A DNA stretch of 64,000 nt from an uncultured Candidatus Saccharibacteria bacterium (GTDB taxonomy: Bacteria; Patescibacteriota; Minisyncoccia; Phycocordibacterales; DATGWK01), in the NCBI GenBank assembly GCA_964492195.1, contig CAZBJL010000002.1, forward strand, positions 25,472 through 89,471, given 5' to 3'. Of this stretch, positions 9,660 to 62,946 are shown piece by piece. The notes beneath the pieces were generated by a model that saw nothing but the letters and a program-made list of their open reading frames with translations, was not told the origin of the DNA and did no database searches. Each line of letters begins with the position of its first letter. Position 1 is the first letter of the stretch. The translations under genes and the position numbers were made by a program.

Positions 9660-9693
9660 TTAAAACATATTTCAAATATGCTAAAGTAGAGCC

Positions 9694-10920: not shown

Positions 10921-10926
10921 TAAAAA

Positions 10927-10948
10927 CCCCGCACTCTGCGGGGTTTTT
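10927..10948. terminator. bidirectional rho-independent terminator
   Basis: ccccgcactctgcgggg hairpin flanked by A-run and T-run, between convergent tyrS and small acidic ORF. Confidence 0.6.
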
Positions 10949-10950
10949 AA

Positions 10951-11085
10951 CTACATATCTTTTTCCTCTTCTTCTACGGGGAGATCTTCTCCTTCGACGT
11001 GCATACCACTTGCAGTGAGTTCGTCCTCACCGTCGTTGTCTAAGCCGTCGTCGTAGACTTCCATTGCATCACGCGTATCCTCCAT
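10951..11085 (-). CDS. small acidic protein (44 aa), hypothetical
   Basis: Hand-translated MEDTRDAMEVYDDGLDNDGEDELTASGMHVEGEDLPVEEEEKDM; may be co-transcribed downstream of ruvC. Confidence 0.25.
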   Translation of the reverse strand: MEDTRDAMEVYDDGLDNDGEDELTASGMHVEGEDLPVEEEEKDM

Positions 11086-11189
11086 GTTTATTTTGAAAAA
11101 ATTTACTTTTATAATTTACAAACTATGTTGCCCCCATGTTGTATCAAATTTAAAAAAACTTGGCAAGAAAAAACACATGTTTTTGTCGA

Positions 11190-11693
11190 TTATTGCTTTG
11201 CAAATTTGCTGTGACGACACGCAAGGTGAGTGAGTCCGACGGCGATTGCATCGTACTCGTCGTCTAGCTTTGGTTTTTTCTCCATCTTGATGAGCCGGGA
11301 AACCATGTCGGTGACGTGAGTTTTGTCGCTTCGGCCGTAGCCTGTGACCGCAACTTTTACTTCTATTGGTTTGTAGTAAAAAACTTCTACGGCAGAGCGC
11401 GTGGCTTCATAAATAATGACCCCGAGAGCTTGGGAAACGAGGAGGGCGGTCGTTTGGTTTTTACTAAAGAAAAGCTCTTCGATAGCGAGGGAATGAGGCG
11501 ACCATTCTTGTATGAGCTTTGAAATCGTTTCGCCTACAATACCAAGTCGTTTTTCGTGCACATTTTTTCGGTCGGTGGTGATGCAGTCAGAAAAAAGGAG
11601 AGTTGATTTGCCGTTTTCTTCTTTTATCACTGCAACGCCAAGTCTGTCATAGCCCGGGTCGATAGCGAGAACAATATGCTCGGAATGTTTCAT
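11190..11693 (-). CDS. ruvC: crossover junction endodeoxyribonuclease RuvC
   Basis: IVLAIDPGYDRLGVAV start, RNase H-like fold, catalytic D/E positions; 4-nt overlap with upstream yebC. Confidence 0.85.
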   Translation of the reverse strand: MKHSEHIVLAIDPGYDRLGVAVIKEENGKSTLLFSDCITTDRKNVHEKRLGIVGETISKLIQEWSPHSLAIEELFFSKNQTTALLVSQALGVIIYEATRSAVEVFYYKPIEVKVAVTGYGRSDKTHVTDMVSRLIKMEKKPKLDDEYDAIAVGLTHLACRHSKFAKQ

Positions 11694-12217
11694 TCGGCAT
11701 TAGTATACACCGCTTGAACATCGTCATTTTCTTCGAGTTCGGTGATGAGTTGGTCGAGTTTTGCTACGTCTTCGTCCGCAAGTTCCATTGTTGTGTTTGG
11801 TTTCCAGCCTTCAGCGGATTTTTCAAATGCCCACGATGCTGCGCCCATGCCGGCGAGTTCGTAGCCGTTTCGAGAAAGAATGTGTTTTATTTCTTGCACC
11901 GCTTTATTTTTGTTGTCGGTAAGTGTGTCGATGATGAGCGCGCATCCGCCGGGGCCGTAGGCTTCGTACATTGCGGACTCCATGACTGTGGAATTGTCTG
12001 TTGATTTTTTTACTGCGCGGTCGATGCTGTCGTTTGGCATATTGATAGCTCGCGCACGGTCGATGATTGCTTTGAGCGTGGGGCTATTTTTGTCGCCTCC
12101 AACTTTTTTCGCTTCGACGGTAATGAGTCGAGAAAATTTTGAAAAGGCTTTGCTTTTTTGAGCATCTGTTTTTCCTTTCTGTCTTTTGATTTGCGCCCAT
12201 TTATTATGTCCGGCCAT
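11690..12217 (-). CDS. YebC/PmpR-family regulator, shortened (internal domain missing)
   Basis: MAGHNKWAQIKRQKG... N-terminus and DDVQAVYTNAE C-terminus match YebC, but 175 aa versus about 245 aa. Confidence 0.75.
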   Translation of the reverse strand: MAGHNKWAQIKRQKGKTDAQKSKAFSKFSRLITVEAKKVGGDKNSPTLKAIIDRARAINMPNDSIDRAVKKSTDNSTVMESAMYEAYGPGGCALIIDTLTDNKNKAVQEIKHILSRNGYELAGMGAASWAFEKSAEGWKPNTTMELADEDVAKLDQLITELEENDDVQAVYTNAE

Positions 12218-12340
12218 AGTGGTTTATATAGTAATGGAAGGAAAAATCGAGGGCAAGCGCGAGGAAAATATGTTGACACTGCCATGCCAATAACCGATAC
12301 TTTCCGCAGATCATCGTACACATTCAAAAAGGAGGTAAAA

Positions 12341-12808
12341 ATGTCACACACCGATTTCCCGTCAATTTGCACTGCCTCTACCCATGTGGCAGTTGTCGTG
12401 TGTGTCACGACATTTTTTGAGAGAGTGCTCAACAACGAAACGACGAGTTCAGTACCCGAAGCGGCACTTTTTGCCCTCAAGGAGCGGTTTTTCAATCCCG
12501 TCCTCGATGGAGTTCTGATCGGCCGTGGTCATGTGAAGAAGGGTGCAGATCACGGGTTTGCAATTCAAAATTACGGAATTGCGTTCCGCGTGTTCCAGGC
12601 TCTCACCCCATGTAGATCGCAGGCCCAGATCGAGAAGGACATTGAGCCGAAGATCGAGCTGTATTCGAGCCTTACCGAGAAAGCCCGCAAAGGACTGCTG
12701 AACCTGAAGGATGCGTGCACTCTCAAAGATCTCAATGAAATGCGTTTGTTTTTGCGAGAGCTCGCAAAGCAAGGAGGAGCACATCGGCTTTCGTGTGGAG
12801 GATCCTAG
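12341..12808 (+). CDS. hypothetical protein (GC-rich insert)
   Basis: Strong SD aaaaggaggtaaaaATG; local GC about 52% versus about 40% in neighbours; followed by terminator. Confidence 0.45.
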   Translation: MSHTDFPSICTASTHVAVVVCVTTFFERVLNNETTSSVPEAALFALKERFFNPVLDGVLIGRGHVKKGADHGFAIQNYGIAFRVFQALTPCRSQAQIEKDIEPKIELYSSLTEKARKGLLNLKDACTLKDLNEMRLFLRELAKQGGAHRLSCGGS

Positions 12809-12815
12809 AAAACAA

Positions 12816-12846
12816 AGACCGTTCGAGTGGACGGTCTTTTATTTTG
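12816..12846 (+). terminator. rho-independent terminator
   Basis: agaccgttcgagtggacggtct hairpin + tttatttt. Confidence 0.5.
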
Positions 12847-12927
12847 CTTCAATACTTTACAAACATGTTTTAATGTGATATTTATATTGCAGATCATAGA
12901 GGCAACACACAACACAGGAGGTGAATT

Positions 12928-13404
12928 TTGGAAGATCTGCTTACCAGAGAAGATCGGCACGAGAGGGAGAGGTCGATAAGTGGAGAGATGAAGGTATTCT
13001 TGGATCGCTTGAAAAATAGGGCCTTGCTTCAACACGGAGAGAGTTTGCAGATAAAGGTTGTTCCGCAGCAAGGCCCTGATATGTTTGTGTACACAACAAT
13101 TACTCCTCCGGGTCCGCTGTTAAGGACTGAAAATCCTAATTCTTACTCAAAATTTACAGGGAAGGTTCTTACCGAGGAGGACTGGACCATAATCCTCAAC
13201 CTGCCATGGCGAAAACAAGCGACGTTGGTGAGGGAACTGAAAGACAGAAAGAACAACCCACCAAAAAAGAGAGAAATTACCCTTGCTGTGGTTGGAAGCA
13301 TCAACCGCACTTTTAGGAATAATAAATCTCCCTATCGCCTCCGAGTGTCTCAACGCAGTAGGGATTCAGAAGAAGGTCACTACGCAATCGTTCATGTTTC
13401 GTGA
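12928..13404 (+). CDS. hypothetical protein (TTG start; GC-rich insert)
   Basis: SD aggaggtg 4 nt before TTG; 158 aa; own terminator. Confidence 0.4.
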   Translation: MEDLLTREDRHERERSISGEMKVFLDRLKNRALLQHGESLQIKVVPQQGPDMFVYTTITPPGPLLRTENPNSYSKFTGKVLTEEDWTIILNLPWRKQATLVRELKDRKNNPPKKREITLAVVGSINRTFRNNKSPYRLRVSQRSRDSEEGHYAIVHVS

Positions 13405-13410
13405 TTCCCA

Positions 13411-13439
13411 AGCCCGTCCGAAAGGTCGGGCTTTTTTTA
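13411..13439. terminator. bidirectional terminator (hairpin with GAAA loop + T7)
   Basis: gcccgtccgaaaggtcgggc + ttttttt; overlaps the ruvB stop codon on the other strand. Confidence 0.5.
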
Positions 13440-14465
13440 TAGCAACGCCCCTCGTTCGTGTGGTGGAGAATCGATATGTTTGTACGCAGCGTCAGTTGCA
13501 ATGCGGCCGCGGGGAGTGCGTTCGATGAAACCAATCTGTAAAAGGTACGGTTCGTTAAATTCTTCGACGGTTGCTTCTTCTTCGGAAAGGGAAGCGGAAA
13601 GGGTGTTGAGCCCAACGGGGCCGCCTTTGAATTTTTTAATAATTGTTTCGAGAATTGATCGGTCAGATTGAGTGAGACCCATTTCATCGACTCCGAGGAG
13701 ACGAAGAGCTTCGTCGACAGATTTTTTGTCGAGTGGACGTTTGTGGATCTGGGCATAGTCACGGCATCGCTTCAAAAGATAATTCGCTGTACGTGGTGTG
13801 AATCGGCTTCGTTTTGCAATTTCTTTTATTGCGCCGTCATCACTTTCTACGCCAAGAATTTTCGCCGAGCGACGAACAATTTTTTCAATTTCGGCGTCAG
13901 TGTAAAATTCGAGTCGGAAAATACCGCCAGAGAAACGACTTCGAAGCGGAGCAGAAATCATGGCGATGCGTGTTGTTGCAGCGACGAGTGTAAACGGCGC
14001 GAGCTCAAGTTGAATCGTGCGCGCTGAAGGCCCTTTACCAATAACGATATCGAGTTGGCCAGTTTCCATTGCAGGGTAGAGGACTTCCTCGATCGCTTTG
14101 TTGAGGCGATGGATTTCGTCGATGAAAAGTAGATCTCCGGGTGCGAGGTTTGTAAGGATAGATGCAAGATCGCCAACTTTTTCTATTGCAGGGCCAGACG
14201 TAACTTTTATTTGCGTGTTGGACTCTTTGGCGATGAGGTGGGCGAGCGTCGTCTTACCGAGGCCTGGCGGGCCGTAAAAAAGAATGTGTTCTGGTGGATG
14301 GTTTCGACCCTTTGCAGCAGACAGAAGAATTTTTAAATTTTCTTTTATAGAATGCTGACCAATGTATTCATCAAAATTCTGCGGACGCAGTGTGAGATCA
14401 AGAAAAGAAGTTTCTTTTTTTGTTTCTTCGGTAATCTCGTTTTCTTCGTTCTGAATTTTTGACAT
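13437..14465 (-). CDS. ruvB: Holliday junction branch migration helicase RuvB
   Basis: Walker A GPPGLGKTTLAHLIA, Walker B DEIHRL, sensor 2 and winged-helix C-terminus. Confidence 0.9.
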   Translation of the reverse strand: MSKIQNEENEITEETKKETSFLDLTLRPQNFDEYIGQHSIKENLKILLSAAKGRNHPPEHILFYGPPGLGKTTLAHLIAKESNTQIKVTSGPAIEKVGDLASILTNLAPGDLLFIDEIHRLNKAIEEVLYPAMETGQLDIVIGKGPSARTIQLELAPFTLVAATTRIAMISAPLRSRFSGGIFRLEFYTDAEIEKIVRRSAKILGVESDDGAIKEIAKRSRFTPRTANYLLKRCRDYAQIHKRPLDKKSVDEALRLLGVDEMGLTQSDRSILETIIKKFKGGPVGLNTLSASLSEEEATVEEFNEPYLLQIGFIERTPRGRIATDAAYKHIDSPPHERGALL

Positions 14466-46702: not shown

Positions 46703-46785
46703 GCGCAGGTGGCGAAATTGGTAGACGCACTACCTTGAGGTGGTAACGCCCATCGGGCATGGAGGTTCAAGTCCTCTCCTGCGCA
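46703..46785 (+). tRNA. tRNA-Leu (anticodon GAG)
   Basis: 83 nt, acceptor GCGCAGG/CCTGCGC, anticodon loop TTGAGGT, long variable arm, T arm GGAGGTTCAAGTCCTCT. Confidence 0.75.
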
Positions 46786-46797
46786 CTGGTTTTTTAT

Positions 46798-51304: not shown

Positions 51305-51916
51305 ATGCTTACTAAAAATAATTCTTTTCGATTAGTAAAAGGAGATTCTTTGAAAGAAAAGGAAAAAATTCCTACCGCGGTTATTTCTTCGTCGACTGAG
51401 AAAAAACATGTTCCAGATGAAAATAAAAGAATTTTTCTAAAAGCGCTTGGTGTTGCAGGAGTTGGAATTGCTGCATCTCAACTTTTACCAAGGAAAGCAG
51501 AAGCACTTGTGATGGGTAGTACGCCTTCGTCGAGTGTCGTTGGTCTCAAAAATGCAAGCAATACTCGGATCAATCCTGCGACCGAAGAAACCCTCGTCTC
51601 ACTATTGTCAGGTCAGAGTGTTGAAAAATTGTCCATCAACTTGTCTGCGTCGGGTAACGTGTTGGTGCCTGGGTCAGGTAATAAAATTAGAGTGTACGCT
51701 TCGAGATTTTCATTAACTGCAGACGCAACGTCAGTTTCATTTCGTTTTACTGCTGGTGGAACTGATCATGAAAAATATGTAACACCAAAAACCGGTGGAC
51801 TCTATGGTGCAAATAATCACCCCAACTATATTGAAGGGGGAGTGGACGAAGTTTTGTATTGTGTAATTTCTGGCACAACAACAGTGCAAATTAATGTTGA
51901 TTATTTAGAAGTTTAA
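51305..51916 (+). CDS. secreted hypothetical protein with Tat-like (KR-FLK) signal
   Basis: NKRIFLKALGVAGVGIAASQLLPRKAEA resembles an RR-x-FLK twin-arginine signal with KR variant. Confidence 0.4.
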   Translation: MLTKNNSFRLVKGDSLKEKEKIPTAVISSSTEKKHVPDENKRIFLKALGVAGVGIAASQLLPRKAEALVMGSTPSSSVVGLKNASNTRINPATEETLVSLLSGQSVEKLSINLSASGNVLVPGSGNKIRVYASRFSLTADATSVSFRFTAGGTDHEKYVTPKTGGLYGANNHPNYIEGGVDEVLYCVISGTTTVQINVDYLEV

Positions 51917-51941
51917 TTTTTTTGTACCTTATACTATAGTC

Positions 51942-54608
51942 ATGGCAAAGCGCGCAATTGAACATATTTTTACAGGAGCAACGGTACCGTACGAAAATTA
52001 CGATGCTGATAAAACGATGTTGGGAGATTTGATCGAGCAGTACACCGGTGCTCTTGCGACAGACAATTTTGCTGGACCTGCAAAAATTGGCGTCGCTCGT
52101 CCTTTCGAAACAGGAACATCGATCCCGGGAATCTTTCCACATGTTATTTCGTGGGGAAACAAAGAGGGCTTTTATTCTACTGGCACAGTTTCAGTTGCGG
52201 CCACAGCGGTTACCGGATCGGGGACTGGTTGGCTTGCCAACGGAGTTCCGATTGGTGCCCGTATCGGCTTCGGTTCAACAGATCCCGCTAGCATAACTAC
52301 CTGGTATACGATAACGGCAGTAGCTTCAGCTACGGCTCTAACAATAGGTAGTTCTGCGGGGACGATCGCCGGAGGTACCGCTTTTGTTATAAATAAGGAA
52401 ATTAAAAAAGACTGGGTATTTTTGGCTGACGGTATCGCTGCATCTGCAATTCGTCGCATTACATGTTTTGAATACGACAGACTCACATCGCTTTTTTCGT
52501 GGAGAGGTTTCATCACTATCACATACGCTGCCGGTGGAGGTAACCAAACGATTCGTGGAATGCGAGCGGTGTATGAGACGTACACTACAGGAACAATAGG
52601 TGTTTCAGGTGCCACGGTTACTGGTTCCAGCACAACGTGGTCAGCAGATCGAATTGCTATTGGTTCACGTATTGGTTTCGGTAGCACGGATCCAACACAA
52701 ATATCTACGTGGTACTACATCAACGCTGTTGGTTCTGATACCTCTATTACTATTCAAACAAACATAACCGCGAGCGGTACTGGTGGAACCGCGGCAAATA
52801 TTTCAGTATCGTCGAGTACCGCCTATGTCATTGAGGATTTGAAAATTTTAACTGCCACTACCACTGCTACGAATATAAACGCAGGTGGTCTTACAATGGT
52901 GAACGGTCTTTCGTATGACGATTTTGCTGTTGGAGGTACTACCATTGCTGCGGCAACAACGGTGGATAAAACAAAAGCCGCATATTCTCTTGTTGATCTC
53001 GATTCGGTGTATTCAACGGGAACAATAAACACAGTTACCAATTCAACAACAGTTACCGGTTCTGGAACAACGTGGGTGTCAGCCTCTCACGTGGGTTGTA
53101 TGATCGGTTTTGGTTCAACAAGTCCCGCCTCGATTACAGAATGGTTCACTATTACTGCGTTTACGTCGGGTACCTCCATAACTATTTCCTCCGCCACCAC
53201 TGTCACCAACGGTTCAGCGTATGTGATCGTTGGTGGAAACGGTATATCCTGCGGTTTGGCGATGGATGATCGTGATAGTTGGACACAACAATATGCATAC
53301 ATCATTGAGCTTCAGGGAGGAACGACACCACAGGTGTATAAATATAATTTCCGAGTGAACCTCAGTACCCTCGGAAACGTAGAAGCGGGAAAAGCTGCAG
53401 CTGCGTGGGTGCTCACAACCGGTACCCAGACGCTTACTGGAACCGTGACACAAACAAATAATGGGCGAATTGGAACGCTCGCTCATGGTCCTGGTTCTGG
53501 TACGAAGTGTTTGTATTTCGCAGCAACAACAAGGATTCATCGTGCTCCACTCGCTAGTATCACCCAAGGAAGTATTACGTGGGTCGCGGATTCGATGACA
53601 GAAGTACCAACAGGAGGATCGGGAACGTATACCTTAACGAGCTTGATGACATCAGTAGAAATTGCCGATCAGATCGATCGACTTATTATTACTTCAACAG
53701 GAGCAGGCGCGACCGTTGCCCATCATCGTGCCTACATTACAAAATACGACGCCTCTGGTTCGTACCAATTTGACCATATGTTTTTGGCAGATACTGCACA
53801 ACAAGACCAATCTACTGCAGACTCGACCTCTACACCCCACCCGAGTTACCAGGGAGCCGCTTTGTCTGTGTGGTCACAGGCTGGTCTTGTATATATTGTT
53901 CGTACCGGACTTACAGCAACGACGAATATTATGTACGCTGTTCCGCTCGGTGCTGATTGGCAGTACGCGGATGGTACGGTAAATCAAAGACTCATCACAC
54001 CTTCACTTCCTACAACAAATGCAGAAAAACTATCCAGGGTGTTTGTAAATAATGCTGATTATCTTGGATCAGGTGGACTTACGTTGCCGACAGAACCTTT
54101 AAGAATTTATTATCGAACAGCGGATATTACTGATGATTCTGGTTCCTGGACACTCGTAGACACTACAGGAGATTTGTCTGCTGCGAACGTCACGACCGAG
54201 ATACAGTTTGCAATAGAATTTCGAATGATCGGAGCATTGTGTATTCCAAACCGTGTCTACAATCTTTGCTGCACGTACGAAGACAACACAACTGATAGTC
54301 ACTATCAGCCGTCTGTGGGCCAGTCATCTACAACTGGAAAGATTTTTGCATGGAGATTTTCAACTGCATTCGGTGGTACAGTACCGACATTGCGTATCAG
54401 GCTCTACAATGCTGAAACAGATGCGGAATTGCTCGATGACACAACAACGGCTTCTGCTGATGGAACGTGGGGAAAATCAACAAACGATGGGGCAGGGTGG
54501 GGTTTATACGACGCAACGGACAAGGGAAATGAAACGACGTACATTCGGTATACCCCAACGGTCCTTGCTGACAATATAAAAGTAAGAGCGCTTCTCACTC
54601 AAGCATAA
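51942..54608 (+). CDS. large repeat protein (888 aa) with about 45-aa GSGT.W...IGFGST.P..IT.WYTI repeats
   Basis: At least 4 copies of the repeat in the N-terminal 450 aa; Thr/Ser/Gly-rich; no signal peptide seen. Confidence 0.5.
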   Translation: MAKRAIEHIFTGATVPYENYDADKTMLGDLIEQYTGALATDNFAGPAKIGVARPFETGTSIPGIFPHVISWGNKEGFYSTGTVSVAATAVTGSGTGWLANGVPIGARIGFGSTDPASITTWYTITAVASATALTIGSSAGTIAGGTAFVINKEIKKDWVFLADGIAASAIRRITCFEYDRLTSLFSWRGFITITYAAGGGNQTIRGMRAVYETYTTGTIGVSGATVTGSSTTWSADRIAIGSRIGFGSTDPTQISTWYYINAVGSDTSITIQTNITASGTGGTAANISVSSSTAYVIEDLKILTATTTATNINAGGLTMVNGLSYDDFAVGGTTIAAATTVDKTKAAYSLVDLDSVYSTGTINTVTNSTTVTGSGTTWVSASHVGCMIGFGSTSPASITEWFTITAFTSGTSITISSATTVTNGSAYVIVGGNGISCGLAMDDRDSWTQQYAYIIELQGGTTPQVYKYNFRVNLSTLGNVEAGKAAAAWVLTTGTQTLTGTVTQTNNGRIGTLAHGPGSGTKCLYFAATTRIHRAPLASITQGSITWVADSMTEVPTGGSGTYTLTSLMTSVEIADQIDRLIITSTGAGATVAHHRAYITKYDASGSYQFDHMFLADTAQQDQSTADSTSTPHPSYQGAALSVWSQAGLVYIVRTGLTATTNIMYAVPLGADWQYADGTVNQRLITPSLPTTNAEKLSRVFVNNADYLGSGGLTLPTEPLRIYYRTADITDDSGSWTLVDTTGDLSAANVTTEIQFAIEFRMIGALCIPNRVYNLCCTYEDNTTDSHYQPSVGQSSTTGKIFAWRFSTAFGGTVPTLRIRLYNAETDAELLDDTTTASADGTWGKSTNDGAGWGLYDATDKGNETTYIRYTPTVLADNIKVRALLTQA

Positions 54609-54611
54609 TTT

Positions 54612-55301
54612 ATGATCCACATAGAAAAAGGAGAATTCGTAGCAGAAAATCCGTCACTAAAAGTAGTGACTAATACTGGTGACTACGAAGATACAGCTCT
54701 CATTGAATTTAAGGATGTGAACTCCGAAGACGAACTTGTGGCAGGTGCGTACCAGGCGCAGTTTGTGAAATACGGAAGCCTGGTCTACAAGTTCAATGAT
54801 CCAAAAAGTTTAGGAACGGAAATTTTAAGAATTGATCCAGAGTCGACTCACACAGCGGCGTCTTTTGTGAGAATGAGTAATGAACTTTTGGATCAGATGA
54901 ACGGGGGAACTCTGGAGTCGGATTCTTTGGATAAAATGATTCCACAAGAACCGGTAAAACCAAAAGAACCCGTTGTCGAACCAGAGGTGGTTGAAGAAGA
55001 AGATGATGAAGATGAGGAGACAGAACCAACGGACACTGAAACGCGTACCACTCCGCCCGTTGTGATAATTCCAGATACGATTCCTGCAACGACGACCGTT
55101 CCAATCATCGATACTTCTACTACAACACCTGCTCTTCCTGATATTTATACACCAACGTCAACTTCCACAATAAAGTCAGACGCAGTCGAGGAATTACTAA
55201 GAGAAGAAGGATCGGATACTCCATCGGTAGCAAATGAGATTGTTGCGTATGCAAAAAAGAAAGTTAAGAAAAACATTAGGAAAAAGTTAGGCCTTAATTA
55301 A
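54612..55301 (+). CDS. acidic Thr/Pro-rich protein, hypothetical
   Basis: Start 4 nt after previous stop; poly-acidic EEEDDEDEE and TTTPxxP low complexity. Confidence 0.4.
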   Translation: MIHIEKGEFVAENPSLKVVTNTGDYEDTALIEFKDVNSEDELVAGAYQAQFVKYGSLVYKFNDPKSLGTEILRIDPESTHTAASFVRMSNELLDQMNGGTLESDSLDKMIPQEPVKPKEPVVEPEVVEEEDDEDEETEPTDTETRTTPPVVIIPDTIPATTTVPIIDTSTTTPALPDIYTPTSTSTIKSDAVEELLREEGSDTPSVANEIVAYAKKKVKKNIRKKLGLN

Positions 55302-55444
55302 TATGGCTATCACAGATGTAATTTTTCAATCAGGTGATAAGCAGGATTTTGTTGTGGAACTACCAAGTGCCACGTACAGCGGCACACTCAAAGATGTCGC
55401 TGTAGAGTCAGGAAGTACGCAGTACCTTTTGCTCGAAGTCCCTC

Positions 55445-56236
55445 TTGCTTCAAGTAGTATCTTCATCATGTCAGAATAGGCGTGATATTCTAGGGTTTGT
55501 GGAAAGGTTCAAAAATTTCATACACAAATTTACTCCGTATCTCGAAGACATACGAAAGCGTCTGTATTTTACTGCGGTTTTCTTTGCAGCATTTTTCGTA
55601 ATAGGATTTTTAGCTACCAGTAGGATTTTAAGAGCGCTGGTTTCAATTTTTGATATTCAGGATGTTGCCATTGCAACCACGTCTCCTTTTCAATTTGCTG
55701 ATCTTTCTATCGACATTGGCCTTTTCAGTGCGTTTCTAGTATCTCTGCCAATTTTCATTTACAACATTTTTGCCTTCTTGCGACCAGCTCTTAGTAAAAA
55801 GGAAAGGGGAATATTTTTTCTTATGATCCCGCTTTCAATTTTTCTTTTTGCTTTAGGGTTTATGTACGGTTTTTTAATTTTGTACTACGCACTTATGATT
55901 TTGGCTCAAGTTAACGTACGCATAGGAATTCAAAATATTTGGGATATTGGAATGTTTTTGACACAAATCGTCCTTACTTCGGCGTTGCTCGGGGTGTTGT
56001 TTCAGTTTCCGCTTGTCATGACGGGTCTCATCCGTGCCGGCTTTCTAGATGTGTCTTTTTTAAAGAAAAAAAGACGAGTGGCGGTGTTCATTATCTTCAT
56101 TTTTACAACTTTACTTCCCCCAACTGATGGTCTATCATTAATGGCAATGGCGTTACCGCTTATCTTACTTTACGAAATTGCAATTCTTGTAAATTCGGGT
56201 GTGAGAAGGCAAAAAGTGGGAGAAGTTTCGATATAA
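55445..56236 (+). CDS. tatC: twin-arginine translocase subunit TatC
   Basis: FIHKFTPYLEDIRKRLY (TatC HLxELRxRL-like), six TM helices. Confidence 0.75.
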   Translation: MLQVVSSSCQNRRDILGFVERFKNFIHKFTPYLEDIRKRLYFTAVFFAAFFVIGFLATSRILRALVSIFDIQDVAIATTSPFQFADLSIDIGLFSAFLVSLPIFIYNIFAFLRPALSKKERGIFFLMIPLSIFLFALGFMYGFLILYYALMILAQVNVRIGIQNIWDIGMFLTQIVLTSALLGVLFQFPLVMTGLIRAGFLDVSFLKKKRRVAVFIIFIFTTLLPPTDGLSLMAMALPLILLYEIAILVNSGVRRQKVGEVSI

Positions 56237-56264
56237 TCGTTGATTATTAATTTAAATAAATAAA

Positions 56265-56432
56265 ATGCTCGGAAACATTGGCACAAAGGAAATAATAATC
56301 ATCGCGATTATTTTCATCATTCTGTTCGGTGCAAAGAAAATCCCGGAACTTTCTAAAAGTCTTGTAGAATCAATCCGACATCTTCGAGGTGCGTTCAAAG
56401 ATCTTCCTGAAGATGCTAACAAGAAGAAATAG
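56265..56432 (+). CDS. tatA: twin-arginine translocase subunit TatA/E
   Basis: Hand-translated 55 aa MLGNIGTKEIIIIAIIFIILFGAKKIPELSKSLVESIRHLRGAFKD...: TM + amphipathic helix with conserved FG and KLP-like signature. Confidence 0.7.
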   Translation: MLGNIGTKEIIIIAIIFIILFGAKKIPELSKSLVESIRHLRGAFKDLPEDANKKK

Positions 56433-56466: not shown

Positions 56467-59400
56467 ATGTCTGTTCGTGCCCCTTCTATTTCCAATGGAT
56501 TGCGTAGAGTGTCCATATTCACTTGGGCATTAATTATTTTTTTATCTGGGGTTCCAGCAGTTGTAAATGCAGCGTATGAGCGATACGGAACCGGGGAAAC
56601 GGCCGTTGTCGGCGAATTTGTGTATGACGATGATTTTGTGGCGACGACGACCCCTTGTACTGTTTCAATATATGACCCATCGGGATCTTTGATTGTAAAC
56701 GCGGCCTCCATGACTGCTGATGCAAATGGTTGGCATCATTACGACTATTCAGTTCCGTCTTCGGGTCCAGAGGGTACGTGGCCTTCATCAATGACGTGTG
56801 GCAGTGTGCCGACAGGTGATCTGGTAAAGCTAGATAAGACGTTTGTGGTTGGAGCGACTTTTGTATCAACTTCCACGTTGGCGACTTCTGTATGGACGAG
56901 CACAGCTCGAACTTTGACATCGTTCGGTACGCTTGTGGCAGATGTGTGGAGCAATACAAGTCGAACATTGACTGGTGCAGGGCTAAATTCAGGATCACTT
57001 GCAACACAGCTTGACGTTAACAACGCGTCGTCTTCACTTGCGGCAACCTTACCTGCATCTATTTGGGCAAATCCAACTCGTTCACTTACAACGTTCGGAA
57101 CATTGGCTGCAGATGTGTGGGCAAATAGCACACGCACATTATCTTCCGGCGGCGTAACAGCAGTTTCAACTGACGTATGGTCATTTGCAACCCGTAGACT
57201 TTCAGACGCCACGCTTGATTCTGGTTCGCTCGCAACGGTTTCAAATCTTACAACAGCAAGCTCATCTCTTGCCGCTGTCGTAAACGGAACTATTTCAACT
57301 GCCTCAACTTCTTTGGCAGCTGTAATAAACGCGAATACAGATACTCAAGCGTCGACAATAACTTCAGGAGTTAATTCAAATACAAATGCTGCAATTCTTA
57401 GCGCAACTTCATCTCTTGCCGCTGTCGTAAACGGAACTATTTCAACTGCCTCAACTTCTTTGGCAGCTGTAATAAACGCGAATACCAATTCTCAAATTTC
57501 AAGTGCGGTTGTGACTATCAACAACAATACAAATTCAACTGTCCTCACGGCATCTTCTTCTCTTGTTGCAACTATTCCTACCGCGGTATGGTCAAACAAC
57601 ACAAGATCACTTACAACGTTCGGAACATTGGCTGCAGATGTGTGGAACGTAGCTACGTCATCTTTTGTGACGGCAGGGTCAGTGGGTCTCCAGTTGGTAA
57701 CAAATCTTGATGTGCCTGTTTCAACAGCAGTGGGCAGTGCAGCACCAACCGCTTCGGACATTTGGAGTTTTGCGAGTCGAACACTTACAGACTCAACGCT
57801 TACTTCTGGTTCACTCGCAACATTGGCGAACGTAACGAGCGCGTCGTCTTCGCTGGCGTCAGCGGTTAGTGCAGGAACCGCAAGTGTCAATTCAAATACA
57901 AATGCCGCTGTGCTTGTAGCGTCAACTTCTCTCGCAACAGTTATTAATGCAAACACGAATTCACAAATATCGAGCGCAATCGCTACGATAAACAGCAACA
58001 CAGATTCTCAAGTTCTTACGGCCTCGACATCGTTGGTCGCCACTATCCCTACGGCTGTCTGGTCGAGTACGTCACGTTCATTAACAACATTCGGAACATT
58101 GATTGCAGATATTTGGACTAATCCAACTCGTACGCTCACATCCGGGGGTTCTCTAACGGCAGCAGACGTCTGGTCGTTTGCAACTCGTCGTCTTTCAGAC
58201 GCTTCGCTTGATTCTGGTTCGCTCGCAACGGTTTCAAATCTTACAACAGCAAGTACATCTCTCGCTGCGGTAATAAATGCGAATACAGATACTCAGACAT
58301 CAGGAATAGCTTCATCGGTTAATTCAAATACAAATTCAGCAATACTTAATGCGTCTACGTCGATTGCGTCAGGCGTAAATGCAAATACAAATGCCGCAAT
58401 TCTTGGCGCAACTTCATCTCTTGCCGCTGTCGTAAACGGAACTATTTCAACTGCCTCAAGCTCTTTGGCATCTGTAATAAACGCGAATACAAACTCTGTG
58501 GTTCTCGGTGCGTCCACATCGGTTGCTGCGGTTGTGAATACTAATACTAATTCCCAAACATCTGGAATCGCATCAGCAGTTAACTCAAACACGAATTCCA
58601 TTGTTGGTAGCGCTTCTACATCTCTCGGAGTATCTCTCACCTCGCTTCCAGCTTCCGTGTGGGCATATAGCTCACGTTCACTTACAACCTTTGGAACGCT
58701 CGTTGCGGATATTTGGGCAAACGTAACAAGAACACTCACGTCATCAACGGGCGCTACATGGTCTATGACAGTTTCTGATTTTGGAACTATTACAGCAGGA
58801 AGTAATTATCTCGCGACACTCCACACAGTTTTTGACGGTACTCTTACTGATGCCGACACTGTTCCGACAGTTACTCTCTATGATCCTAGTCGAAACGTGG
58901 TCGTGAGTGGGGTATCTATGACTCGTGTTTCTGCGGGTACTTATACATATTCATACACGACGTCAGGGTCTGCAGAAGCAGGAACGTGGGAAACAGTATT
59001 TTCTGCGACCGTAGAAACAGGAAAGACGTTGGGTGGTAACGATTACTGGGAGGTTTCTTCAAGTCCGGCGCAAGTAATTATTAATAGTATTTCAGACAAC
59101 ACAGTGCCGTCCATCGAAGCAAACGTTACGATAACAAACGAAGGTTTGACTGGATATGAATATCAATACGAGTGGTGCGTGGTTTCAGATATAAATAATT
59201 CTTGTGGAGGCGGAGATGACATTTTCCACGCAACTGCAGCAAAATTTATTAACCCTGGTGAAGATTTCAACACAACGCTTACCTCGACTGTTTCTTCTGT
59301 TGGGGATTACTACTTTAAAGCCGTGGTCTATTTCGGGACTGAAAGTTCCGGTGCTTCAAGGTCTTTTTCCGCAATATCAGACTCAACGTCACCGCCAACT

Positions 59401-59640
59401 ACTCCTAGAGGAGGTGGTGGAGGGGGCGGTGGTTCGTCCGGTTCTGGGGTTGTCCAAACACAGGGATGTCCGAACGCTGATTTCAACTGTGACAACAGAG
59501 TAAACTCAATTGATTTCTCGATATTGTTGTACTACTGGAAGGCAACTCCACCGTTTGGAAATGCAAGCACGGATATGAATCATGATGGTAAAATAGACTC
59601 AGTTGATTTCTCGATATTGTTGTATTGGTGGGGTAATTAA
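56467..59640 (+). CDS. giant secreted Ser/Thr/Ala-rich repeat protein with poly-Gly linker and C-terminal dockerin-like duplicated Ca-binding segment
   Basis: Signal peptide; dozens of about 25-aa repeats; PRGGGGGGGGSSGSG; C-terminus DFNCDNRVNSIDFSILLYYW ... DMNHDGKIDSVDFSILLYWW (two dockerin-like repeats). Confidence 0.55.
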   Translation: MSVRAPSISNGLRRVSIFTWALIIFLSGVPAVVNAAYERYGTGETAVVGEFVYDDDFVATTTPCTVSIYDPSGSLIVNAASMTADANGWHHYDYSVPSSGPEGTWPSSMTCGSVPTGDLVKLDKTFVVGATFVSTSTLATSVWTSTARTLTSFGTLVADVWSNTSRTLTGAGLNSGSLATQLDVNNASSSLAATLPASIWANPTRSLTTFGTLAADVWANSTRTLSSGGVTAVSTDVWSFATRRLSDATLDSGSLATVSNLTTASSSLAAVVNGTISTASTSLAAVINANTDTQASTITSGVNSNTNAAILSATSSLAAVVNGTISTASTSLAAVINANTNSQISSAVVTINNNTNSTVLTASSSLVATIPTAVWSNNTRSLTTFGTLAADVWNVATSSFVTAGSVGLQLVTNLDVPVSTAVGSAAPTASDIWSFASRTLTDSTLTSGSLATLANVTSASSSLASAVSAGTASVNSNTNAAVLVASTSLATVINANTNSQISSAIATINSNTDSQVLTASTSLVATIPTAVWSSTSRSLTTFGTLIADIWTNPTRTLTSGGSLTAADVWSFATRRLSDASLDSGSLATVSNLTTASTSLAAVINANTDTQTSGIASSVNSNTNSAILNASTSIASGVNANTNAAILGATSSLAAVVNGTISTASSSLASVINANTNSVVLGASTSVAAVVNTNTNSQTSGIASAVNSNTNSIVGSASTSLGVSLTSLPASVWAYSSRSLTTFGTLVADIWANVTRTLTSSTGATWSMTVSDFGTITAGSNYLATLHTVFDGTLTDADTVPTVTLYDPSRNVVVSGVSMTRVSAGTYTYSYTTSGSAEAGTWETVFSATVETGKTLGGNDYWEVSSSPAQVIINSISDNTVPSIEANVTITNEGLTGYEYQYEWCVVSDINNSCGGGDDIFHATAAKFINPGEDFNTTLTSTVSSVGDYYFKAVVYFGTESSGASRSFSAISDSTSPPTTPRGGGGGGGGSSGSGVVQTQGCPNADFNCDNRVNSIDFSILLYYWKATPPFGNASTDMNHDGKIDSVDFSILLYWWGN
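57190..58500 (+). repeat. near-identical intragenic nucleotide repeats (about 77-85 nt units)
   Basis: Unit gcaacttcatctcttgccgctgtcgtaaacggaactatttcaactgcctcaa...ctgtaataaacgcgaatac occurs at about 57262, 57402 and 58408 with 1-3 mismatches; a second unit at about 57196 and 58184. Confidence 0.6.
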
Positions 59641-59647
59641 TTAAAAA

Positions 59648-60550
59648 ATGAAAAATATATTCAATATAAAATTTATAATCTTTGCGGTTTTGTTCAGTGT
59701 ATTACCTGCGAGCGTTTCTGCGGCGACTGTGTATCTGGAATCTTCTCGAAACACCATATCCGTCGGTGACACTGCTGTTGTTGCTGTAAAAATAAACGCA
59801 GAAGGGGGAGTGCTTAACACTGTGGACGGCGAAATAGGTATGAAGTCTCTCTTGAACAATGTTGTTGTGCAGGAGTTCAGTTTATCTAATTCCTCTTTTG
59901 GTTTGTGGCCGCGAACTCCTTCACTTTCTACCGACGGTAAAACAGTTTCTTTCGTTGGTGGTGTACCGGGAGGATTCAGTATTGAAGGAGCAACCCTTTT
60001 TAAAATGATAATTGAAGCGAGAAAAGAAGGTACTGTAATTATTAGTCCGCAAAATATTTCTGTCTTTGCTAATGATGGTGCGGGCACAAAAATGCCCGTT
60101 ACTATGAAAAACTTGGCAATTCGGGTTGTGCCAAAAAATCCCAACACTCCTGTACAAAATGACTGGGCTGGAATTGTGGCACAAGACGCCGTTGCTCCGG
60201 AGTCATTTATTATTGTTCTTGGACAAGACAACTCACTTTTTCAGGGTAAAAAGTTCGCATTTTTCAGCTCTGTCGACAATCAGTCGGGGATAGACTATTA
60301 CGAGGTCTCTGAAAATGGCAGACCCGCAGTCCGAAGCGGCAGTACATACGTCCTCCAAGATCAAAGTGAAAACGTAACTCTTGATGTTGTTGCGGTTGAT
60401 AAGGCTGGAAACAAAAAAACGGCATCGCTTCGTTCCGGAAAAGACGGCATCGCGTGGCCTTTCGTTATTGTTGTGGTGATCCTGGGAGTTATTGGTAAAT
60501 GGTTGTACAGAAGATGGAAAAATAAGAGAAATGCTTCACGCGTTCTTTAA
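59648..60550 (+). CDS. secreted beta-sandwich (cohesin-like) protein with C-terminal TM anchor
   Basis: Signal peptide, SSRNTISVGDTAVVAVKINAEG... pattern, C-terminal TM WPFVIVVVILGVIGKWLY + basic tail. Confidence 0.45.
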   Translation: MKNIFNIKFIIFAVLFSVLPASVSAATVYLESSRNTISVGDTAVVAVKINAEGGVLNTVDGEIGMKSLLNNVVVQEFSLSNSSFGLWPRTPSLSTDGKTVSFVGGVPGGFSIEGATLFKMIIEARKEGTVIISPQNISVFANDGAGTKMPVTMKNLAIRVVPKNPNTPVQNDWAGIVAQDAVAPESFIIVLGQDNSLFQGKKFAFFSSVDNQSGIDYYEVSENGRPAVRSGSTYVLQDQSENVTLDVVAVDKAGNKKTASLRSGKDGIAWPFVIVVVILGVIGKWLYRRWKNKRNASRVL

Positions 60551-62243
60551 AAAAAATACGGGCGGTTTTGTTCTTCTGTTCGCTGTATTGTTAAGCTGTT
60601 CTTTTCTGTGGGCAGATGTTGCTCACGCCGCAACTATTTCTTTTTCTCCCTCTGTTTCAACGGTGTCTGTCGGTAATATTGTTACCGTAAAAGCGTTGGT
60701 GAACACGGCTGGAAAAGCTATCAATAATGCCGACAGCATTATTCAGTTTCCTTCAGATCTACTCGAAGTTATTTCTGTAAGTAAGGGCGGATCCGTTTTT
60801 TCTCTTTGGGTAGAAGAACCTTCATTTTCTAACCCATTAGGTCGGGTAACTTTCAATGGAGGTCTTCCAAATCCTGGCTTCAATGGTGTAAGCGGTGAAA
60901 TGGTTTCAGTTGTATTTAAGGCGAAAAAAACTGGTGTAGCGACGATTGCTTTCTCTGATTCCGCCGTGCGTGAAAACGATGGTCTCGGAACAGACATTCT
61001 TACTGCAAAGCAATCAACAACACTCCAGATTGGTGCGAGTGTTCCAGTTGTTCCTTCATTGGCAGGCGTCCCCGTAAAACCAACAGTTACTTCTTCAACT
61101 CATTCAGAGCAGGAATCTTGGTACACAGAAACAACCGCAATATTAAGCTGGGTTATTCCGAGCGGGGTCTCATCTATTCAAACTCTTCTCACCAAGAATC
61201 CAAATGAAACACCAACACTTACGTACGACAGTTCTGTATCACAGCGTACCGTTACTGATATTGCTAATGGTGTTTCATATTTCCATTTGCGCTACATGAA
61301 TGCCGCTGGTTGGGGACCAACAGCTCATTACAAAATCCAAATCGACAATGTGTCACCTGACGCCTTTCTACCCCGTGTCCGTATAGAAAATAGCAAAAAT
61401 ATTGTGGTACTCGATGCCACTGACGCTACGTCTGGGATAGATTCATATTCATTACAGATCGATAATTACCCTGCACTTACTGTGCGGAAGGATTCTATTA
61501 AAAATGGTGAATATGAACTCCCGGTTCAAACTGTAGGAGATCATAGCTTGCAGGTTGTTGCTTACGATAAGGCGGGGAACAAAACCGAAGCGCATACATC
61601 ATTTTTAAGTCCACAGATAACCGCTCCGAAAATAGTTCTTTCATCGGAGACAGTTCAACGTGGTGAAAGCGTGATAGTAAATGGAACGTCTGCGTATGCA
61701 CGAGTACCGGTTGAAGTATTTACTCAAATAAATGACAAGAAGATAAAAGTTTACAGCGCCACAACTGGTGACGATGGATCGTTCACGATTACTTCAGAAA
61801 AATTAAATACGAGCGGATCGCTTCATGTGTGGGCACAACTTGTATTTTCAGAAAGCGTACAGAGTCCACTTTCTGAAAAAGTAGAAATGCAGGTTGATGA
61901 TTCTCTTGTAGTTCAAACAAGTCTGTCGCTTATTTACACTCTTGCGTTTGTGATTCCAACAATAATTCTGATAATAATACTTACATTTATCATGTATCTC
62001 GGTTGGCACAAGTTCTTTGGTTTGCGACGAAAACTTCAGGATGATTTAGATGAAACGGTAAAAGAAACACACAAAGCATTCACTCTTTTCAAAGAAGAAC
62101 TTGGTTTGCAGTTAGAAAAACTAGAGAAGATAAAAGAGGATCGAGATCTGAATAAAAAAGAAGAGAAGATATTCAAACAACTTCAGTCAAATATTGATGA
62201 TATTGATGAGTTTATACACAAACGCCTTCGAAAAATCACATAG
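60531..62243 (+). CDS. paralogous secreted cohesin-like/Ig-like multi-domain protein with C-terminal TM anchor and coiled-coil tail
   Basis: N-terminal domain ATISFSPSVSTVSVGNIVTVKALVNTAGKAINNADS parallels previous gene; TM near residue 480; start at MLHAFFKK. Confidence 0.45.
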   Translation: MLHAFFKKNTGGFVLLFAVLLSCSFLWADVAHAATISFSPSVSTVSVGNIVTVKALVNTAGKAINNADSIIQFPSDLLEVISVSKGGSVFSLWVEEPSFSNPLGRVTFNGGLPNPGFNGVSGEMVSVVFKAKKTGVATIAFSDSAVRENDGLGTDILTAKQSTTLQIGASVPVVPSLAGVPVKPTVTSSTHSEQESWYTETTAILSWVIPSGVSSIQTLLTKNPNETPTLTYDSSVSQRTVTDIANGVSYFHLRYMNAAGWGPTAHYKIQIDNVSPDAFLPRVRIENSKNIVVLDATDATSGIDSYSLQIDNYPALTVRKDSIKNGEYELPVQTVGDHSLQVVAYDKAGNKTEAHTSFLSPQITAPKIVLSSETVQRGESVIVNGTSAYARVPVEVFTQINDKKIKVYSATTGDDGSFTITSEKLNTSGSLHVWAQLVFSESVQSPLSEKVEMQVDDSLVVQTSLSLIYTLAFVIPTIILIIILTFIMYLGWHKFFGLRRKLQDDLDETVKETHKAFTLFKEELGLQLEKLEKIKEDRDLNKKEEKIFKQLQSNIDDIDEFIHKRLRKIT

Positions 62244-62946
62244 ATTCTTTGTCGATCCTTTGTAAAACGCCGCCAGTTACGTGCGCTTGGATAATTTCCA
62301 ACTCTTTGGTGGCAGTAATTGAGTATTCGATTGTTATTATATTGTCTGTGATATAAATATTTTTTGGAACCACTTCATCTCCTAGAAAAATAAGATTTGT
62401 GCCTGTGTAGCCGGTCTCACCATTCAGAGCAGCGGCGAGATAGTAGAGCATTCCTCTGGAATCATCATTTCTATTTATTATAAAAGCAACATCCTCTTTT
62501 CCGTCACCGTCCAAATCACCCCTTGCTTCGGTGCCGAAATATTGTTTCGGAGTTTTATTTGTTGCTTGCAAGACGGTTGCTGTGTGTGCAAAAACATCAT
62601 CTACAATGACATGCTTTTTAGAGCCGGCATTTTGTTCTGCAAAAATTAAGCCTCCAACAAGGAGAATGATTGGAATAATAACGTAAGCGGCGCGAGTTAA
62701 TTTTTTAATGATTAAACCAACAATAGCTCCATATAAAGTGAAGACTGTGACGAAGAAGGCAAAGGATGTTATCAAAACTTGATTTTCTGGAATGTGAAAT
62801 TGTACAAGAAGGGGACGAAGCGATATCCAGTGCAGCGCATGACCAACAAAGCCACCGTTGCTTATGAGAAAGGTTGTGTATGCGGCCACAACAACCCCAA
62901 TAAAAAACCCAATAATACTTGTTTCAAGAACCGTGAGTCTTTTCAT
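62236..62946 (-). CDS. hypothetical membrane protein (N-terminal TM helices + C-terminal soluble domain)
   Basis: Hydropathy only. Confidence 0.4.
   Translation of the reverse strand: MKRLTVLETSIIGFFIGVVVAAYTTFLISNGGFVGHALHWISLRPLLVQFHIPENQVLITSFAFFVTVFTLYGAIVGLIIKKLTRAAYVIIPIILLVGGLIFAEQNAGSKKHVIVDDVFAHTATVLQATNKTPKQYFGTEARGDLDGDGKEDVAFIINRNDDSRGMLYYLAAALNGETGYTGTNLIFLGDEVVPKNIYITDNIITIEYSITATKELEIIQAHVTGGVLQRIDKESM

Follow-up and report, generated by a model that had tools for sequence, protein, structure and literature searches.

A Tat-linked chromosomal gene cassette with phage tail-fibre relatives in Paceibacteria

The cassette and its neighbours

The locus described here is a cassette of four genes, p203, p888, p229 and p58, that lies directly upstream of the genes for TatC and TatA of the Tat (twin-arginine translocation) machinery in a 64,000-nucleotide stretch of contig CAZBJL010000002.1 (assembly GCA_964492195.1), hereafter the window. 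All six open reading frames (ORFs), which had been listed in an earlier note made from the sequence alone, were confirmed on the forward strand. The products of p203 (51305..51916), p888 (51942..54608), p229 (54612..55301) and p58 (55303..55479) have the lengths in residues that their names give; tatC (55445..56236) and tatA (56265..56432) follow, matching PF00902 (E 1.8e-37) and PF02416 (E 9.4e-14), respectively. The listed TTG start of tatC at 55445 overlaps p58, and alignment with other TatC proteins favours the GTG at 55499, 19 nucleotides past the p58 stop codon. With spacings of 25, 3 and 1 nucleotides between the cassette genes and about 19 nucleotides to this start, the run from p203 to tatC is compatible with one operon. 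A scan for promoters and terminators gave counts close to those expected from shuffled sequence.

p203 comprises a long n-region, a Tat-type signal, a short stalk motif (VVGLKNASNTRINPATEETL) and a C-terminal jelly-roll domain of about 100 residues. The signal, at residues ~38–67, reads N-K-R-I-F-L-K-ALGVAGVGIAASQLL-PRK-AEA, with K41-R42-I-F-L-K followed by a G/A-rich h-region and PRKAEA and with predicted cleavage ahead of LV; from the KRIFLKA motif through the predicted AxA cleavage site it spans residues 41–67 (51425..51505), as read from the sequence and from alignments. After the K-R pair the sequence has x-F-L-K, an h-region rich in G and A that is only weakly hydrophobic, a c-region containing a basic residue, and an AxA site (KRIFLKALGVAGVGIAASQLLPRKAEA, ahead of LV), and the same pattern recurs in p203 homologs. 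The earlier note had drawn attention to a Tat-like KR-FLK signal in this protein, and that reading is borne out by the match to TIGR01409 (TAT_signal_seq), which at 17.6 bits is above the curated cut-off of 16.7 and aligns residues 44–67, spanning the h- and c-regions and starting after the K-R pair. Homologs of p203 are plentiful, with 564 close ones, and N-K-R-x-F-L-K is almost invariant among the closest 120. The pattern [K/R]-R-x-[FLIMV]-[FLIVM]-K with a weakly hydrophobic stretch is found in all 66 distinct cellular homologs from the fetched loci, the first pair being KR in 54 and RR in 12, and in none of three viral homologs. Exchange of lysine and arginine at the first position together with an invariant second arginine is the pattern expected of a Tat motif under selection. 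p203 is also the sole clean Tat candidate within the window. A search of PDB sequences with the p203 profile gave matches at chance level only. As judged from these features, p203 is a short fibre-type protein bearing a predicted Tat signal.

The Tat-signal proteins (P0270–P0294; window positions 51305–51430) also begin with a conserved stretch, M..S-K/R-Y/F-S-F-R/K, at their very N-terminus. This tag stands 30–100 residues before the K-R motif, in two classes of protein with differing C-termini, and we know of no role for such an N-terminal tag ahead of a Tat signal.

p888 is an all-beta protein of 888 residues. The earlier note had described in it a 45-residue repeat in at least four copies. 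That description needs correction: the unit is a domain of about 75 residues present in three copies, 51–56% identical to each other in pairs over 70–74 aligned residues; the copies are not in tandem but lie some 140 residues apart, between strands of the modelled beta-propeller, and a profile built from the three found no fourth copy in p888 or in its neighbours. The note had asked whether a single repeat forms a propeller or a solenoid; it is instead a small beta-barrel inserted in a six-bladed beta-propeller protein. Copy 1 (52170..52397; residues 77–152) and copy 3 (53007..53228; residues 356–429) are clean insertions that are missing from the phage homologs described below, copy 3 being confined to a subclade of ~885 residues and missing additionally from the cellular homologs of ~800 residues. 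Copy 2 (52578..52832; residues 213–297) is present in all homologs, is nearly invariant and is taken as the ancestral copy. As the phage homologs (708–719 residues) correspond to the window protein minus copies 1 and 3, the repeats derive from a single ancestral barrel, duplicated within the cellular lineage.

The AlphaFold2 model of p888, built with 56 homologs, is confident, with a predicted local distance difference test score (pLDDT) of 82.3 and a predicted template-modelling score of 0.79, and it has six four-stranded blades arranged around a central axis. From this model we infer a layout in which an N-terminal segment precedes a six-bladed propeller interrupted by the three small barrels, and a beta-sandwich of ~195 residues forms the C-terminus (residues 694–888; 54021..54608). 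The strand pattern suggests that the barrels are inserted ahead of blade 1, after blade 1 and after blade 2. No NHL, YWTD or other propeller sequence repeats were found in Pfam or NCBIfam scans, so that the likeness is one of fold and carries no family membership. More generally, nothing useful was returned for p888, p229 or p58 from Pfam, NCBIfam and PADLOC, the last giving no match for any of the seven proteins tested, and p888 found only chance-level matches among PDB sequences. The small barrel alone weakly matches phrog_2712, annotated 'tail fiber protein' (E 1.7e-5), and more weakly the PDB entry 8eci, 'Decoration protein' (E 0.017). A Foldseek comparison of p888 with viral models in BFVD gave E values down to 1e-12, yet template-modelling scores of at most 0.19; the proteins matched are multi-domain phage tail or structural proteins, and in some of them the small barrel termed 'E1 FCCH' is annotated. 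On these models the likeness is local, and the overall architecture is not common to both.

The lack of an obvious signal in p888, noted earlier, holds for the whole family as far as it was surveyed: no signal-like motif was found in p888 itself and a Tat-like motif was found in none of the 120 homologs listed, nor was a Sec signal, an SLH domain or another anchoring domain detected in p888 from Pfam, NCBIfam or the sequence. There are more than 1000 homologs of p888, all of those with a source name being labelled hypothetical proteins and assigned to Pacebacteria, to Parcubacteria or to the Patescibacteria group, and the 39 closest among the matches listed are 71–92% identical to it.

p229 has a conserved N-domain of ~60–110 residues, an acidic low-complexity tail rich in T, P and E, and a basic C-terminus. 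Its description as an acidic T/P-rich protein was accurate, with an isoelectric point of 4.3 and with 18 T, 14 P and 25 D+E among the 95 residues from 106 to 200. p58 is acidic as well, starting MA(L/I)TD and ending IFIMSE. No signal peptide was found in p229 or p58, and profiles of p58 and of the p229 N-domain gave only chance-level matches against PDB sequences.

In a comparison of four TatC proteins of the candidate phyla radiation (CPR) with that of E. coli, Glu103 is invariant and Glu15 is replaced by aspartate, positions that we take to be acidic signal-binding residues. Downstream of tatA three further genes, all on the forward strand, encode surface-type proteins that are co-conserved with tatCA. 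p1057 (56467..59640) starts with a Sec-type signal and ends in a dockerin, and contains an MG2 domain and long repeats rich in S, T, A and N; p300 (59648..60550) has an N-terminal signal, an immunoglobulin (Ig)/OmpL47-type barrel and a C-terminal transmembrane helix; p583 (60492..62243) has an N-terminal signal, an OmpL47-type barrel and Ig-like domains. Their counterparts in another cellular locus, L001, include a p1057-type protein of 2305 residues and a p583-type protein that ends in a C-terminal transmembrane helix. A cohesin in p300 or p583 was considered as partner of the p1057 dockerin and was set aside, there being no cohesin signal in Pfam and PDB sequence searches. The other window neighbours that were scanned encode DUF305, DUF2914, cupin and DUF817 proteins. 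None of the scanned neighbours is a hallmark phage gene (integrase, terminase, portal or capsid); the sole phage-related match is a sub-threshold, holin-like one (E 0.034) to a 236-residue ORF at 62236–62946. Upstream of the cassette, at 46703–46786 and directly before tRNA-His, a 'tRNA-???' was called by ARAGORN, which gave two bases for its anticodon.

Conservation of the linkage in cellular genomes

A scan in which each species was represented by one genome gave 76 loci, 44 of them with enough flanking sequence, and these loci were searched with the nine proteins of the window. In 43 of these 44 tatC lies within 10 kb of the cassette, and in 37 all nine genes (p203, p888, p229, p58, tatC, tatA, p1057, p300 and p583) are present. 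The arrangement varies between at least four gene orders, with tatCA found downstream in some loci, upstream in others (L001, L022) or else encoded on the opposite strand (L058, L072), and with the MG2 block downstream or divergent upstream according to the locus, while p888 is always immediately downstream of p203. That the linkage is kept despite rearrangement argues for a functional tie between the cassette and tatCA, and it is the conservation for which the earlier note had proposed to look. When the comparison was started instead from metagenomic TatC, all five contigs with a TatC at least 65% identical and with upstream sequence present have cassette genes upstream. Four metagenome contigs in which TatC is 47–50% identical are without the cassette; three of the four have another phage-like module, with no signal, upstream of tatC, and most of the four retain part of the MG2/p300/p583 block by tatCA; parts of that block persist in most loci that lack the cassette (L167, L168, L170, L175).

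In a sister lineage whose TatC is 47–50% identical to that of the window, the region upstream of tatC (L167, 1–2853; L168, 65–9995; L169, 133–1161) encodes a giant protein (2775 residues in L168), a 187-residue protein and a 342-residue protein, the last of which begins as a coiled coil and weakly matches a glucosaminidase (E 3.7e-4).

The sole well-flanked genome locus without Tat, L070, is in a metagenome-assembled genome (MAG) of Armatimonadota. Its 719-residue p888 homolog shares 49% identity with window p888 in the multiple alignment and stands in a prophage-like tail region (8450–14262 of the locus, on a 1.36-Mb contig) that also encodes a minor-tail-like repeat protein, an HNH protein and a protein of phrog_644. 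At 49% identity this homolog points to exchange of the p888 gene beyond Patescibacteria. Many of the MAG records with the locus (L005–L080) are titled 'uncultured Candidatus Saccharibacteria' or 'Gammaproteobacteria', and the same gene block occurs in records titled Paceibacterota, Parcubacteria, Adlerbacteria, Nomurabacteria and Zambryskiibacteriota; the first two titles look like default or mis-assigned ones.

Phage relatives and exchange of the distal genes

Full-length p888 homologs, 32–47% identical, were found in at least 164 viral contigs in a scan of IMG/VR, of which 80 loci were kept for comparison. The viral contigs that bear p888 are real phages: L089, for example, has genes for tail tube, large terminase and portal, and L116 has holin-like and endolysin-domain genes. 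In L089 (14118–21613) the large terminase (1347 residues) and the portal (1139 residues) both contain HNH/endonuclease-like insertions that may be inteins. No match to p888 was found by tblastn in the GenBank phages of INPHARED, and none of tatC, tatA, p1057, p300 or p583 was found in the 80 viral loci kept. The gene directly upstream of viral p888 is a tail-fibre or virion-structural gene in the majority of those inspected (L089, L092, L101, L120, L128, L081, L147), with no such gene in that position in L116, L111, L091 and L097. A p58-like ORF lies directly downstream of p888 in ~20 of the 80 loci, and in ~10 the p229 N-domain occurs as a stand-alone protein of 55–64 residues after p888, both as detected with local profiles; the cassette relatives in phage contigs thus keep their cellular relative order. 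The position after a fibre gene is the usual site of phage fibre chaperone or adaptor genes. The p203-type jelly roll forms the C-terminus of the upstream protein in three viral loci, never with a Tat signal; there it is preceded by an N-terminal domain, coiled-coil or other, where the cellular form has the Tat signal instead.

The upstream fibre proteins of the phages often end in a phrog_10330/35197 domain. The phrog_10330-type C-terminal domain was considered as a homolog of the p203 jelly roll and was rejected, with an hhalign probability of 0.3%. Further viral relatives of p203 seen as weak matches (E ~0.005) were lost in a search of all viral ORFs, and only the three are solid.

Once the two inserted repeats are removed, phage and cellular p888 are 42–51% identical. 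The earlier note could not place the repeat protein in a known family; its family belongs to phage tail-fibre modules. The note had also named what would speak against its idea of Tat-dependent envelope components, namely a match of the repeats to a known phage tail, capsid or S-layer family together with a linkage to tatCA that is not conserved. The kinship with phage is found, and the linkage is kept.

When the p203 profile was run against 1.84 billion cluster representatives, 314 proteins were matched, two classes of which are conspicuous. Those of the phage type carry the jelly roll at the C-terminus of proteins of 115–621 residues, with coiled-coil N-termini, fibre repeats and no signal. 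Members of the second class have the whole p203 N-terminal module in common ('SKYSFR' start, D-x-K-R-x-F-L-K, AxA site, stalk motif), with different fibre-like domains as C-termini. The pattern read from the gene content is that a putative Tat-signal protein heads a variable, phage-fibre-like cargo adjoining tat genes and a constant surface-protein block.

One gene of this second class, in locus L175 (10001–16032), encodes a class-T Tat-signal fibre protein (P0271). It is followed by genes for a 1183-residue protein of small-barrel repeats and for a protein that starts as a coiled coil, contains a lysin-like motif and has a tail rich in T and P, the L167 relative of which has a weak glucosaminidase match. 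Two tandem tatA genes and the MG2/dockerin block follow, PilM is encoded upstream, and no tatC was seen in this 20.9-kb locus.

The divergence of p888, measured as alignment distance from the window copy since best high-scoring-segment-pair scores are confounded by insertions and were dropped, correlates with the identity of p229 (rho -0.70) and of p58 (rho -0.54), and p203 tracks TatC (rho 0.64). We read p888, p229 and p58 as a putative swappable distal unit and p203 with Tat as a vertically inherited chassis. The neighbour-joining tree of p888 has a star-like backbone with cellular and viral clades interleaved, and does not give the direction of transfer. Tandem p888 paralogs, two or three in a row, occur in a cellular locus (L055, 10001–17934, with proteins of 883, 811 and 947 residues) and in the viral loci L122, L104 and L109.

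Predicted export and possible role

We propose, with moderate confidence, that the cassette is a chromosomally fixed module of phage tail-fibre kind in Paceibacteria, coupled to a minimal TatA–TatC translocase and exported in part by hitch-hiking to act as an adhesin. The arrangement suggests a phage-type fibre serving as a cell-surface structure. p203, p888 and the other products would fold and associate in the cytoplasm, as do phage fibres; TatC would then recognise the [K/R]-R-x-F-L-K signal of p203 and TatA would pass the folded cargo, with the signal-less p888 riding along in the manner of known hitch-hikers. p229 and p58 may leave the cell together with it, or may remain inside and serve the unit as its specific chaperones or adaptors. 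Signal peptidase might cleave p203 at the AxA site, or the signal might remain as an anchor; given the conserved AxA after the h-region, cleavage would be at least as likely as anchoring. The complex would be displayed at the surface near the giant MG2/dockerin protein, which is exported by Sec, and the two partners of that protein anchored in the membrane and, by analogy with the receptor-binding module of a phage, may recognise or adhere to the surface of another cell. A need to export a fibre that is folded in the cytoplasm and depends on chaperones would explain the retention of Tat in reduced genomes. Paceibacteria are ultra-small, have such genomes and are probably episymbiotic, and a bolder version, offered only tentatively, is that they use a phage receptor-binding fibre as a surface organelle to find or hold a partner cell, keeping TatAC largely for its export, swapping the distal propeller unit with phages like a host-range cassette and having the Tat signal in place of the virion-attachment domain.

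Signal-bearing and signal-less partners are familiar from hydrogenase-2 (HybO/HybC), DmsAB and Streptomyces MelC1/MelC2. Multi-subunit hitch-hiking is documented for E. coli PaoABC, in which PaoB and PaoC ride on PaoA (PMC4273604), and with this precedent export of p888 by way of p203 would be a reasonable inference. As in those systems, a small first-encoded subunit has the signal and the large downstream partner or partners do not, the genes are operon-like and cytoplasmic folding would precede export. The known hitch-hikers are, however, cofactor-containing redox or copper enzymes, whereas p203 and p888 have no cofactor motif and would form a phage-fibre-like structural cargo; the p203 signal is also mostly K-R with a very long n-region, the tat genes are in the same cluster and the complex is a predicted one. 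The plant Rieske protein uses K-R as well. Uncleaved Tat signals that act as anchors exist, for example in the Rieske protein (PMC7317946), and the signal of p203 could likewise anchor, although p203 has an AxA site and no Fe-S domain.

The likeness to phage fibre modules is partial. Fibre genes with downstream chaperone or adaptor genes are known from lambda (stf/tfa) and T4 (gp37/gp38). Cyanophage Pam3 likewise has a fibre plus chaperone gene (PMC9608196). Viral p888 follows tail-fibre or virion genes, in some loci with p229N- or p58-like genes after it, and its distal unit is swapped and occurs as tandem paralogs. Cellular copies are without a virion, have a predicted Tat signal and not a virion-attachment domain on the upstream partner, and contain extra small-barrel insertions; their C-terminal domain is conserved and not hypervariable, and p888 as a whole matches no annotated phage family. 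R- and F-type tailocins, extracellular contractile injection systems (eCIS, including PVC) and the type VI secretion system retain the sheath, the tube and the baseplate, and either leave the cell when it lyses or are fired from within it. The cassette resembles them in that phage-structural-type genes are fixed in bacterial chromosomes for cellular use, but it keeps the fibre-type module only and its predicted exit is via Tat. Compared with NHL-type propellers (Brat NHL, 1q7f; the PknD sensor, 1rwi; PAL, 3fw0), p888 is 8–12% identical and without Pfam NHL repeats, and it adds three inter-blade barrels, the N-terminal segment and the C-terminal sandwich.

Several observations weigh against the export of a p203–p888 fibre. 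The window p203 carries K-R, as do most members, rather than R-R. Natural KR Tat signals exist. Substitution by lysine is nevertheless usually poorly tolerated (review PMC7317946). The n-region of p203-type proteins is unusually long (40–110 residues), the signal is preceded by the conserved N-terminal tag, to which no role is assigned, and the structure model of p203 is only moderately confident (mean pLDDT 60.6). The p203–p888 complex is itself a putative one. Phage fibres are usually trimers and the largest known Tat cargoes are of ~150 kDa; p203 and p888 at 1:1 come to 107.5 kDa and all four proteins to 139 kDa, and a trimeric p203–p888 complex would exceed 300 kDa. The C-terminal sandwich and the middle barrel are the segments of p888 best conserved against phage (the sandwich is 52–59% identical to the five phage or prophage homologs compared, and repeat copy 2 is 51–61%), which is unusual for a receptor-binding tip. 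Nor does the divergence of p888 track that of p203 or TatC, or of TatA or p300 (|rho| <= 0.1), and any p203–p888 interface would therefore need to tolerate module swapping. In the sister lineage (L167–L169) the phage-like module upstream of tatC is a different one, with no signal visible on any of its proteins.

The last two points, with the missing signals of p888, p229 and p58, are also those expected if p203 were the only Tat substrate and its neighbours p888, p229 and p58 stayed in the cytoplasm, for example as an assembly or quality-control factor for p203 or with an unrelated function. We consider this unlikely, as a 93-kDa propeller with phage-tail-type barrels and tail-fibre-module kin would be an improbable helper for a 14-kDa jelly roll, and p888 is immediately downstream of p203 in every cellular locus. 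The resemblance to phage, close over the full core and with interleaved clades, would equally suit receptor masking or superinfection exclusion, in which an exported copy of the phage binding module occupies the cell's own receptor, possibly the MG2/dockerin giant that the cassette always adjoins; swapping of p888-p229-p58 between lineages and tandem paralogs are what an arms race would produce. We hold this to be quite improbable: no known defence family was matched in PADLOC, the 71–92% identity within the window's clade of 48 members speaks for a conserved role in the cell more than for an arms race, and the idea presupposes that p888-bearing phages infect Paceibacteria. About as doubtful is an exported propeller hydrolase or lyase (of sialidase, lactonase, phytase or PAL-like kind) for nutrient scavenging or attack on a host envelope, with p203 as carrier like MelC1 for tyrosinase. 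p888 matches no enzyme family by sequence in Pfam or NCBIfam, the non-catalytic NHL and PknD-sensor propellers score equally high or higher, and the phage context is one of tail-fibre modules, with lysis genes nearby in one examined locus only.

An abundant, highly conserved, acidic all-beta protein might also be a component of an S-layer or another envelope lattice. This seems very improbable to us given the lack of a Sec signal, SLH or other anchoring domain in p888; such proteins usually diverge quickly, and homologs in phage tail modules are not expected for them. Least probable of all is a decaying prophage remnant that adjoins tatCA by chance, a reading to which the homologs in phages and in the prophage-like region of the Armatimonadota MAG might lend themselves. 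It is already contradicted by the nine-gene neighbourhood, which recurs with its ORFs intact and at 71–92% identity in genomes of dozens of species, by scanned neighbours that include no hallmark phage family beyond the sub-threshold holin-like match, and by a Tat signal gained in cellular copies only.

The components of the proposed fibre are of known kinds (Tat signals, hitch-hiking, phage fibre modules, chromosomal phage-type genes), and it is their combination that appears new. In the literature on Patescibacteria that concerns surface appendages, tail fibres, dockerin or substrates of Tat we found no description of this module, nor did we find a report that proteins resembling phage fibres are exported by Tat. 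The presence of Tat genes in Paceibacteria is on record with no substrate named (PMC9166423), none was found described elsewhere, and the locus provides a concrete candidate. It gives context to unannotated families, with the homologs of p888 and p203 and the cluster representatives matched by the p203 profile counted above, and it ties uncultured phages to this bacterial group through common, exchanged fibre genes. If true, this would to our knowledge be the first case of a phage-fibre-type module routed through Tat. Export by hitch-hiking, known for cofactor enzymes, would then extend to structural proteins, and there would be a molecular handle on how CPR cells other than Saccharibacteria recognise or hold their partners.

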